From the sequence record OR995200.1: a DNA stretch of 64,000 nucleotides; one strand, given 5' to 3'. This DNA comes from Escherichia phage JY01. This document shows, in pieces, positions 48,248-50,473 of this stretch. A program made the translations under genes and the position numbers. The notes beneath the pieces were generated by a model, which searched no databases, was not told where the DNA came from, and was given only the letters and a program-made list of their open reading frames with translations. The stretch's first letter is position 1; every line of letters begins with the position of its first letter.

Positions 48248-48829
48248 TCATTTATATACTGATTCCGTAAGGGTTGTTACTTCATCTATTTTATACCAAT
48301 GCGTTTCAACCATTTCACGCTTGCTTATATCATCAAGAAAACTTGCATCTAATTGAACCGTTGAATTAACACGATGCCTTTTAACGATGCGAGAAACAAC
48401 TACTTCATCTGCATAAGGTAATGCAGCATATAACAGAGCAGGTCCGCCAATTACACTTACTTTAGAATTCTGATCAAGCATAGTCTCAAATGGTGCATTA
48501 GGGCTTGACACTTGAATTTCGCCGCCAGAAATGTAAGTTATGTACTGTTCCCATGTAATATAGAAATGTGCTAAATCGCCGTCTTTAGTTACAGGATAAT
48601 CACGCGCAAGGTCACACACCACAATATGGCTACGACCGGGAAGTAATGTAGATAATGACTGGAACGTTTTAGCACCCATAATCATAATTGTACCTTCGGT
48701 ACGAGCTTTAAAATTCTGGAGGTCCTTTTTAACTCGTCCCCATGGTAAACCATCACCTAAACCAAATGCTAATTCATTAAAGCCTTCAACTGTTTTAGTT
48801 GGAGAATAAGCGAATACCAATTTAATCAT
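48248..48829 (-). CDS. frd: dihydrofolate reductase
   Basis: 193 aa from [12 protein letters not shown]; matches T4 DHFR as I recall it. Confidence 0.92.
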
Positions 48830-49086
48830 TACACAAATCCTCTTTCGATAAACCATTCAGTGGCTTTATTAGCATCAAAGAATAATTCTTCATATGTCTT
48901 TTCTTTGTTTTCAAAAACTGTCACACAAACACGTTGACATTCTCCACAGTATTCTTCTGACATACTTAAAGCGTCAGAAAACATTTCTTTAAATTCATTT
49001 AAATCAGGATTATGCAATGCGTTAAAAATTGCATAATCGAATTCATCATTCATAAATTCAAATACAAAAATCATATTACCTCCCAC
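48829..49086 (-). CDS. hypothetical protein (frd.1-like)
   Basis: 85-aa ORF; stop overlaps the frd start. Confidence 0.55.
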
Positions 49087-49430
49087 TGAAAGGGGCCAGA
49101 AGCAAATCCGCTATCTTTAATCATTTTAACTAAAGTTACCATTCCTCTGTTAACTGCTTGCGAGATTTCATCAAAAACTTCATCACTATCACCATAAAGA
49201 TCGCTAAAAAGTTCTAACACGTTCTTCTGAACTTTTAATTTACAGCCAACAAATTCGCCTACAGTAAATTCGTTTCCGCCAACTCCAGCGTAAAACGTAA
49301 TTACACCAGTTAATGGTCTTTCACTAGAACATAGGTCGTGTGATAAATTAATATAAGCCGTCCCGGGTGCAGTTTTAAGTTGGCAACGAATACTTACTCG
49401 AGCAATTCCAGCTACACGAATGTCAGACAT
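49071..49430 (-). CDS. hypothetical protein (frd.2-like)
   Basis: 119-aa ORF. Confidence 0.55.
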   Translation of the reverse strand: MSDIRVAGIARVSIRCQLKTAPGTAYINLSHDLCSSERPLTGVITFYAGVGGNEFTVGEFVGCKLKVQKNVLELFSDLYGDSDEVFDEISQAVNRGMVTLVKMIKDSGFASGPFQWEVI

Positions 49431-49440
49431 AATATTTTCC

Positions 49441-49683
49441 TCAAATAGACTTTTTCACAATTTTCCAATCAGCTTTAAACTGATCAACGTCAGAATGATA
49501 AATCCAGAATCCTGCGCTTTCTCCATCCTCATAAAGAGGGCATCTATCACATTCATCTTCCCATCCCATATCACGTAAAAGATGTTCAGCTTTTTCAACA
49601 AGTTCAGAATCTTTACCGATGATATTAAAATACCATTTACCTCTAACTTCCGAATCTTTGATGCTCTGACGTTGTAATCTCAT
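49441..49683 (-). CDS. hypothetical protein (frd.3-like)
   Basis: 80-aa ORF with GGAGAA SD. Confidence 0.55.
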   Translation of the reverse strand: MRLQRQSIKDSEVRGKWYFNIIGKDSELVEKAEHLLRDMGWEDECDRCPLYEDGESAGFWIYHSDVDQFKADWKIVKKSI

Positions 49684-49792
49684 TTTATTCTCCTTAGCAA
49701 GCTTTAATCAAAAGATATAAACAAACTAACATAACTGCTGCCATAATATAAGGTGCGAACATTTTCTTTTCTCCATTAGTTTTGATAGGGTA

Positions 49793-49822
49793 ATAGTATC
49801 ACACTACTACCCTGCTGTAAAC
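49793..49822 (-). promoter_or_regulatory. early promoter candidate with bulged inverted repeat
   Basis: minus strand: GTTTAC - 18 nt - TACTAT; inverted repeat AGGGTA...TACCCT at 49787-49813. Confidence 0.45.
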
Positions 49823-50199
49823 TACTTTTTGAAAGTTTTTCGCAAAAGTTCAATGATTCGATCTACATTGTTTTCGTCAACGATGCAGTGAATTTTTGTT
49901 ACGCCAGAAATCGTGTCTTCGCCTTCATCTTCAGAAATCGGTTCTTTATACTCGCGAAAGCAATAAAATTCGTCTTCGCAAATTTCTGAAAGTCTATCAC
50001 AAAAGTAAAAATGTTTTCCATTGGCGCATTCAATATGTTTTACTGCTTTAAATCCATTATTAAAGAAAACTTCTTTAACTTCAAACCATCCACCATTTTC
50101 TTTGATAATTTTAACTATCGATCCATTAGAACGTGGGCTATGACTAATAAATGCGTCAATGAGACTTGGAACAAGTTCATACTTTTTACCGATATACAT
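49822..50199 (-). CDS. hypothetical Cys-rich protein
   Basis: ORF-track 144 aa; start placed at the internal ATG with GAGGAAAAG SD (125 aa); several Cys (HIECANGKHFYFCD...EFYCF). Confidence 0.5.
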   Translation of the reverse strand: MYIGKKYELVPSLIDAFISHSPRSNGSIVKIIKENGGWFEVKEVFFNNGFKAVKHIECANGKHFYFCDRLSEICEDEFYCFREYKEPISEDEGEDTISGVTKIHCIVDENNVDRIIELLRKTFKK

Positions 50200-50245
50200 T
50201 TTCTTTTCCTCATTTTTAACGGGGTTATTGATAGCCCCTTGATAA

Positions 50246-50473
50246 TTATTGTTCAATCAGTCCCATGTAAAACTCTGCGTCTTCGGCATCCATACCATCA
50301 CAGTATTCATTAGCCATAAAGCGTTCAAGAACTTCTAAAGGACCTTCAACAACAATTTGAATACTCCAAAATTTAGAATCTTGCACACTTGCGATGCTAA
50401 GTTCAGGATAACGATTACGAATAATCTCTTCAATATATTCAAAATCAACGATGTCAATATCAACTTTAGCCAT
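50246..50473 (-). CDS. hypothetical acidic protein (75 aa)
   Basis: start placed at the internal ATG with GAGGAAAA SD; the upstream in-frame extension contains the gene 32 terminator hairpin. Confidence 0.5.

Follow-up and report, generated by a model that had tools for sequence, protein, structure and literature searches.

The window analysed here is a stretch of 64,000 nucleotides (nt) from Escherichia phage JY01 (OR995200.1), a Tequatrovirus (T4-like) phage, and we report on the block of small open reading frames (ORFs) that lies in it between gene 32 and frd, the gene for dihydrofolate reductase. The block comprises five ORFs, all on the minus strand (Table 1), and along this strand the order is gene 32 terminator, early promoter, frd.3, frd.2, early promoter with a hairpin, a candidate micro-ORF of 22 amino acids (aa), frd.1, ORF2, ORF1 and frd. 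The block is a known and widely annotated entity, namely the plastic cluster of early genes that T-even phages typically have between gene 32 and the frd-td nucleotide-precursor genes; for our explanation of the block as a whole, given below, we estimate a probability of roughly 80%.

All five predicted proteins match PHROG families (E 2e-32 to 9e-45), each of them of unknown function, and four of the five pass the gathering cut-off of a Pfam family (E 1e-29 to 4e-39). Specifically, ORF5 corresponds to PF05798 (Phage_FRD3; 133.6 bits with a cut-off of 28.1, E 3.6e-39, positions 1-75 of 75), ORF4 to PF03197 (FRD2; 107 bits, cut-off 29, E 8.3e-31, positions 2-96 of 96), ORF3 to PF17438 (DUF5417; 114.2 bits, cut-off 23.9, E 3.3e-33), a label that T4 frd.1 also carries, and ORF2 to PF23905 (DUF7247; 103.6 bits, cut-off 27, E 1.1e-29, positions 1-103 of 106); ORF1 belongs to phrog_3183 (E 5e-43) and has no Pfam family. 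The block proteins were mapped onto 16 loci, and the amino acid identities were 93% between ORF5 and T4 Frd.3 (ratio of nonsynonymous to synonymous substitution rates, dN/dS, 0.13), 96% between ORF3 and T4 Frd.1, and 64% and 100% between ORF4 and the Frd.2 proteins of T4 and Sf23, respectively. These family matches, the presence of the 2-kb block region in 598 phage records and a dN/dS well under 1 in all but one of the genes make it clear that the ORFs are not chance reading frames.

An earlier inspection of the letters alone (the sequence-only reading) had noted five ORFs in this interval, each with its own Shine-Dalgarno sequence and several with early-promoter-like elements, and had named only frd.1 to frd.3 for T4. 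We confirm these points with one correction: the first ORF, given as 85 aa, is 81 aa long from its ATG, the longer version using a GTG four codons upstream, and the annotated homologues all start at the ATG. Purine-rich Shine-Dalgarno sequences are seen 6-9 nt before the ATG of all five (frd.3, AGAGGA; frd.2, TGAGGA; frd.1, AAGGAG; ORF2, TGAGGA; ORF1, GGGAGG), and the promoter-like elements amount to two consensus-matching sites, one before frd.3 and one before frd.1. From frd to gene 32 the T4 record has the three genes frd.1, frd.2 and frd.3 and no others, and ORF1 and ORF2 are without a T4 gene, which rules out one-to-one T4 homologues for all five. There are accordingly two ORFs beyond the three of T4, as had been proposed, but they are not peculiar to phage JY01 and are common to hundreds of Tequatrovirus genomes.

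Table 1. Features of the block and of its surroundings in the window (phage JY01)
Feature	Position	Strand	Remarks
td, intronless	46974..47834	-	neighbouring gene (region order)
Extra ORF between td and frd	47880..48227	-	115 aa; phrog_1928, no Pfam
frd (dihydrofolate reductase)	48248..48829	-	downstream boundary of the block; 98% aa identity to T4 Frd
ORF1 (phrog_3183)	48829..49074	-	81 aa from ATG (246 bp); acidic, isoelectric point (pI) 4.16
ORF2 (DUF7247)	49071..49430	-	119 aa
ORF3 (frd.1 orthologue)	49441..49683	-	80 aa
Candidate micro-ORF	49694..49762	-	22 aa, hydrophobic (MFAPYIMAAVMLVCLYLLIKAC); in the 138-bp frd.2-frd.1 spacer
12-bp hairpin	49788..49812	-	within the frd.1 promoter (spacer and -10 box); dG -15.2 kcal/mol, z -3.9, no T-run
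Early-promoter-like site before micro-ORF and frd.1	49793..49821	-	GTTTACA, 17-nt spacer, TG-n-TACTAT
ORF4 (frd.2 orthologue)	49822..50199	-	125 aa from ATG
ORF5 (frd.3 orthologue)	50246..50473	-	75 aa; very acidic, pI 4.05
Early-promoter-like site before frd.3	50517..50545	-	GTTTACA, 17-nt spacer, TG-n-TACTAT
Intrinsic terminator after gene 32	50579..50597	-	bounds the block upstream; stem GGGGACC/GGTCCCC, then TTTTTTATTT; identical in T4
Gene 32	50620..51528	-	neighbouring gene (region order)
Gene 59	51628..52281	-	neighbouring gene (region order)

The alignments make it highly probable that ORF1 and ORF2 are ancestral and that T4 lost both in a single deletion of ~540 bp. In T4 the spacer between frd.1 and frd is 72 bp long and, as judged from three-way and pairwise alignments, keeps relics of the 5' end of ORF2 and the 3' end of ORF1. 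It starts with the ORF2 Shine-Dalgarno sequence, its ATG and degraded first codons (a 16-codon relic), which read MYVIEIIQVSIRFQLK followed by a stop where ORF2 of the window reads MSDIRVAGIARVSIRCQLKT, and it ends with the last ~12 nt of ORF1, which carry the ribosome-binding site of frd; about 540 bp are missing in between. Relics of both genes in one spacer would be explained only by a deletion. The opposite scenario, in which ORF1 and ORF2 were recently inserted into this lineage as a mobile cassette and T4 lost nothing, draws on the varying occupants of the slot and on the presence of DUF7247 in unrelated phages, and is nevertheless largely refuted by this scar, with its degraded ORF2 start (Shine-Dalgarno sequence and ATG included) and ORF1 end. 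Moreover, the T4-type junction was found at full coverage in 17 of 50,697 phage records only (two among the matches listed, both T4 records), DUF7247 occupies the same slot in another genus, Jiaodavirus, and neither an endonuclease or integrase nor flanking repeats turned up, so that we regard a recent insertion as extremely unlikely.

The ORF between td and frd is another case of the reduced state of T4: T4, whose frd and td genes overlap, lacks it, and it is present in T6-like phages, AR1, Sf23, Shfl2 and a Klebsiella Jiaodavirus. For annotation purposes T4 is a misleading reference in this region, since it is a deletion derivative and the genes that look "extra" relative to it are the norm in the genus.

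At the DNA level ORF1 was found in 457 records and ORF1 together with ORF2 in 220; T6 carries both, while Shfl2 and a T2 fragment have ORF1 only. In a Klebsiella Jiaodavirus the order is frd.3-frd.2-frd.1-(small)-DUF7247-(small)-frd-phrog_1928-td, and the conservation of this order indicates that both DUF7247 and the frd-td ORF have long belonged to the cluster. A toxin-antitoxin-like or otherwise obligate ORF2-ORF1 pair was considered and rejected: ~237 records have ORF1 without ORF2, and DUF7247 occurs without ORF1 in Jiaodavirus, Phapecoctavirus and phage PE37.

These and further loci, which include 170-kb contigs of T-even relatives from IMG/VR (their label as Mosigvirus-type is provisional), show that the frd.1-frd slot is a hotspot of cassette exchange with at least six states. 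The slot holds ORF2 and ORF1 in the window, ORF1 alone in Shfl2 and the scar in T4; frd.1 and frd abut directly, with nothing between them, in two loci (L007 and L015); an unrelated gene of 113 aa, phrog_8592, is present alone or followed by an ORF1 homologue in the 170-kb contigs; and PE37 has ORF2, a relic of the ORF1 5' end and the phrog_8592 cassette. One further locus (L006) carries an uncharacterised 251-bp filler. The 113-aa occupant was also considered as a divergent DUF7247 protein and rejected, as it had no Pfam match, gave no hmmsearch match and belongs to phrog_8592. It is linked to frd by the same ATGA-ATGA chain. In PE37 (L025, 1060..1494) ~30 codons of the ORF1 5' end are joined to the phrog_8592 cassette, and this join directly documents that cassettes are exchanged by recombination. 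The window itself is a recombinant mosaic, since its ORF2 and ORF1 are AR1/RB27-like and its gp59, gp32, Frd.3 and Frd.2 Sf23-like; these different ancestries imply a recombination breakpoint near frd.1.

The ORF1 protein is present in 470 phage records and hardly varies among about 450 phages. A search of 5.8 billion proteins returned close relatives only, and an exhaustive HMMER search of 1.84 billion representatives gave five matches, one of them a spurious Kazal-repeat protein and one a 42%-identical homologue from a T-even relative. A 39%-identical homologue is located at the same position in three of the IMG/VR contigs. We tried ORF1 as a thioredoxin/glutaredoxin-like protein because of its CGEC motif, and thioredoxins were its best profile matches in the PDB, at E values (0.33-0.44) that are not significant; the cysteines are missing in the 39%-identical homologues, and with 35 residues remaining the protein is too short for the fold. 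The AlphaFold 2 (AF2) model of ORF1 has a predicted local distance difference test score (pLDDT) of 52 and is unusable.

The start codon of ORF1 overlaps the stop codon of ORF2 (ATGA), its stop codon overlaps the frd start (TAATG, in which TAA and ATG share one base), and the frd Shine-Dalgarno sequence, AGAGGA, sits within the 3' end of ORF1. ORF2, ORF1 and frd would probably be translated as a coupled unit by way of the overlapping stop and start codons. Such an arrangement raises the possibility that ORF1 is a small accessory or assembly factor for dihydrofolate reductase or for deoxynucleoside triphosphate (dNTP) synthesis, its ratio to the enzyme being fixed by translational coupling. In addition to the overlap and the internal Shine-Dalgarno sequence, this would fit the strong purifying selection on ORF1, the same adjacency and ATGA overlap in the three contigs with the 39%-identical homologue, and the fact that the deletion in T4 spared exactly that part of the ORF1 3' end that bears the frd ribosome-binding site. 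We nevertheless consider such a role improbable. T4 lacks ORF1, and its Frd and its dNTP synthetase complex are fully functional; frd.1 is joined directly to frd in many loci of Tequatrovirus type and of the 170-kb T-even relatives; and the Jiaodavirus slot is occupied by an unrelated 54-aa ORF. The unrelated 113-aa cassette is coupled to frd as well, which points to operon packing and not to partnership. Since a stop/start chain (ATGA, ATGA or TAATG) leads into frd with any of the cassettes, the coupling is best regarded as tight operon packing.

ORF2, in contrast to its neighbours, evolves fast. Using tblastn, ORF2/DUF7247 was detected in 447 phage records, including T6, RB27, AR1, Klebsiella T4-like phages (Jiaodavirus) and Phapecoctavirus, and 20 of 20 database homologues carry PF23905. 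There are at least two or three allele classes, with 62-79% protein identity and in-frame indels of 6 and 18 nt (window compared with L002, L018 and L023-L027). When Frd.1, ORF1 and ORF2 were compared in the same ten phages (dS 0.07-0.38), dN/dS was 0.06 (median) for Frd.1, about 0.10 for ORF1 and 0.63 (overall median) for ORF2; for the latter it was 0.12-0.27 within allele classes and 0.5-0.9, up to 1.56, between them. Within identical pairs of genomes, ORF2 had a ratio of nonsynonymous to synonymous differences (nd:sd) significantly above that of both neighbours (Fisher p 6e-5 to 0.03). Positive selection was considered and is not claimed, given that nonsynonymous and synonymous proportions (pN and pS) did not differ significantly (p 0.12-0.71) despite pairs with omega (dN/dS) up to 1.56; the claim is limited to a rate raised relative to the neighbours. 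The reading frame is intact throughout and every indel is in frame, which together with the fast protein change argues that ORF2 is a functional gene that evolves fast. The AF2 model of ORF2 (pLDDT 67) has six strands followed by two helices. Its sequence gave no match in the PDB, its fold gave none that was significant there (Foldseek, best E 0.9), and in BFVD the fold matched mainly other DUF7247 and uncharacterised phage proteins.

These properties bear on whether ORF1 and/or ORF2 might be anti-defence or host-takeover effectors, i.e. proteins directed against immunity or competing phages that occur in natural hosts and not in laboratory E. coli; if so, T4 could lose them because their target is absent from the laboratory host. 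We see this as possible, with the odds on the other side. It agrees with an accessory block under early promoters, with the loss of both genes in T4 without penalty and of ORF2 in T2-type phages, with the turnover of cassettes at the slot and with the movement of DUF7247 across unrelated myovirus groups (Tevenvirinae and Phapecoctavirus), as it does with the small size and acidity of ORF1 (pI 4.16) and with the dN/dS of ORF2 between allele classes (0.5-1.5, compared with 0.06-0.10 in the neighbours, and with the frame intact). On the other hand, relaxed constraint also predicts a high omega for ORF2, and ORF1, with an omega of about 0.1 and near invariance in ~450 phages, is unlike typical arms-race genes. 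Searches of the PDB by sequence and by fold revealed no likeness to a characterised anti-defence protein or fold, and a literature search gave no hit. Neither ORF1 nor ORF2 matched PADLOC or NCBIfam models, apart from one chance-level PADLOC score of ORF1 to Cas8b (E 0.014, 12 bits). We found no publication on DUF5417, DUF7247 or ORF1 and no T4 small-ORF study, and the accessory-gene and essentiality screens in the literature do not mention the frd region. The block genes are probably dispensable in laboratory hosts, since T4 grows without both ORF1 and ORF2 and T2 without ORF2.

The sequence-only reading had also described the ~125-aa protein as cysteine-rich and taken this to suggest metal binding. 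This protein is Frd.2 itself and not an extra, and its cysteine pattern is not conserved. Frd.2 of the window has five cysteines, among them a C-x13-C-x6-C-x6-C spacing, and the segments that had drawn attention, HIECANGKHFYFCD and EICEDEFYCF, do not constitute a conserved motif. We rejected Frd.2 as a cysteine-based zinc protein, for which four conserved ligands in paired spacing would be required. A cysteine-dependent metal site of any kind, for which the five cysteines of this allele with their spacing and the invariance of three of them (in ECANG, FYCF and IHCIV) across the 13 orthologues examined can be cited, is in our opinion very unlikely. The three invariant cysteines are 22-28 residues apart and form no CxxC or CxxH pairs, the two others are specific to the allele class of the window and missing in T4 Frd.2, and a paralogue subfamily that matches PF03197 (~28% identical) retains none of the three; with three of five cysteines conserved in orthologues and none in paralogues, a metal site is not supported. 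No zinc-finger family was matched in the Pfam search, and in the published model the first two cysteines are in the N-terminal beta-barrel and the third in the C-terminal domain (PMC12152347). The 170-kb contigs L009-L012 (about 2550..3910) have two PF03197 (Frd.2-type) genes, ~28% identical to each other, in a gene order unlike that of Tequatrovirus, with frd.3 between or after the two; the two copies indicate that Frd.2 was duplicated in that lineage.

T4 Frd.2 has been predicted to consist of a five-stranded LSm/SH3-like barrel at the N-terminus and a C-terminal domain that is variable (Kim et al. 2025, PMC12152347), and by orthology the same fold is predicted for Frd.2 of the window. In that study the GoF(D25Y) mutant alone affected RNA stability, Frd.2 was not shown to bind RNA, and a frd.2 amber mutant plated without defect (PMC12152347). 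In a CRISPRi-ART screen, frd.2 was the only T4 gene of unknown function that scored for fitness (PMC11879866).

With respect to the other cysteines of the block, Frd.1 (DUF5417) has an invariant CxxC, CD[GRN]CP, that is still present in Jiaodavirus, whose Frd.1 is 48% identical; no other cysteine pair of the block is conserved, and no conserved histidine partners were seen. Hidden paralogy within the block was looked for with hhalign in seven pairs (ORF2/Frd.2, ORF2/113-aa cassette, ORF1/Frd.3, ORF1/Frd.1, ORF1/113-aa cassette, Frd.1/Frd.3 and ORF2/ORF1), and the probability was <=2.2% in every pair (0.4% for ORF2/Frd.2). Frd.3 homologues are single-domain proteins of 74-99 aa, save one 50-aa fragment. 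The phrog_1764 profile has 391 positions, of which Frd.3 matches the last 75, and gp32 of a Klebsiella phage bears the same family label; a link between gp32 and Frd.3 was rejected, since a fusion search found no fusion protein and the shared label is probably a clustering artefact.

Turning to expression signals, the frd.3 promoter of T4 keeps the -35 and -10 elements with a different spacer, and the frd.1 promoter is essentially identical in T4; in SA21RB the equivalent sites carry a T4-type early promoter annotation. The frd.3 RNA is among the most abundant T4 RNAs capped with nicotinamide adenine dinucleotide (NAD), which fits an active start site just upstream. No MotA-box middle promoter was found within the block, the nearest one being upstream of gene 32, and an Rfam scan gave one chance match to a microRNA model below threshold only. 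The hairpin at the frd.1 promoter is single-copy in the window, and the first 40-60 nt of the element match other places in related genomes. The lack of a T-run sets it apart from canonical terminators; in one related record it bears a terminator annotation. The 138-bp frd.2-frd.1 spacer is full-length in 199 records. The micro-ORF in it has a GGAG 8 nt upstream of its ATG, and its stop is 10 nt before the frd.1 ATG. It is intact in 10 of 10 sequences, and five of the seven variable sites are at codon position 3 (p about 0.045, a binomial estimate). Its protein is identical in T4, and it is annotated only in ACG-C40 (D862_gp276) and not in the T4 RefSeq record.

In the picture that we favour, the block genes would probably be transcribed right after infection from two early promoters of the sigma-70 type, and their products would be small, mostly acidic modulators that bind host or phage macromolecules, not catalysts. 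Frd.2 most likely acts on RNA through its predicted LSm/SH3-like beta-barrel, as the literature prediction would have it, and the most likely binding partner of ORF2 is a variable target in the host or in a competitor, ORF2 having a surface that is near-neutral between classes while the frame and a conserved core are kept. Several points weigh against this picture. None of the five proteins has a demonstrated function, and the binding mechanism is proposed solely from the size and charge of the proteins, their evolutionary rate and the lack of matches to catalytic families. The two promoters are consensus matches with no mapped 5' ends in this phage, the ORF2 model is of medium confidence only and that of ORF1 of no use, and the published frd.2 results, a fitness effect in CRISPRi-ART and no plating defect of the amber mutant, are in conflict. 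Likewise, diversifying selection and relaxed constraint are not separable as causes of the high dN/dS of ORF2 between classes.

A more far-reaching version, which we put forward tentatively and do not expect to hold in full, is that the frd.1-frd slot is a conflict locus: ORF2 would be an early effector under diversification, the variable beta-sheet surface of which would track a polymorphic host factor, defence system or rival phage, phrog_8592 and ORF1 would be swapped by recombination, and T4 would have lost this layer in its laboratory history or in its source lineage; the micro-ORF would, in addition, be a genuine unannotated membrane micro-protein of T4. Our understanding of T-even biology is unchanged unless a function is found, and the locus offers two modest leads. 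One is the evolutionary rate of ORF2, a concrete and cheap target for functional work, being early, near-neutral in its amino acid turnover, surrounded by constrained neighbours and spread to unrelated enterobacterial myoviruses; the other is the 22-aa micro-ORF, which is present in T4 and hence testable with existing T4 tools.

With regard to known systems, ORF4 is the orthologue of T4 Frd.2, a member of the GoF/MotB.1/Frd.2 family of early proteins with a predicted LSm-like fold; the ORF2 model likewise has a beta-then-helix layout, but no profile similarity to Frd.2 (hhalign 0.4%). The cluster of T4 (NC_000866, T4p240-242) shares with the window the position, gene order, strand, terminator and two early promoters, as well as an identical content of the 138-bp frd.2-frd.1 spacer, micro-ORF included. 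The two differ in the 72-bp scar that T4 has in place of ORF1 and ORF2, in the homing-endonuclease gene segG between genes 32 and 59 (the window has none at 51529..51627), in the td gene, which in T4 contains an intron with I-TevI and in the window has neither a group I intron nor I-TevI, and in the ORF between td and frd that T4 lacks. Frd.2 of the window is moreover of another allele class than that of T4, with two extra cysteines and a central loop that is three residues shorter.

Closer likenesses are found among other phages. In RB27 and AR1, ORF1 and ORF2 have 100% protein identity to those of the window and are annotated as hypothetical proteins (AR1_245 for ORF2 in AR1); AR1 differs by an additional 86-aa ORF (phrog_4423) between frd.2 and the micro-ORF, and RB27 by a ~290-bp insertion in the match. 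Sf23 has the same five-gene layout with 100% protein identity for Frd.2, Frd.3, gp32 and gp59, but its ORF2 is of the other allele class, 64% identical and six codons shorter.

Finally, the block resembles the hyperplastic accessory regions of T4-type genomes, reportedly described by Comeau et al. (2007) and Petrov et al. (2010), which are said to hold small early ORFs of unknown function subject to presence/absence, allele replacement and cassette exchange between core genes. It differs from them in that the slot of the window is embedded in, and translationally chained to, frd, a gene of an essential pathway, and a deletion at the slot therefore has to leave the ribosome-binding site of frd in place, which is what is seen in the T4 scar.

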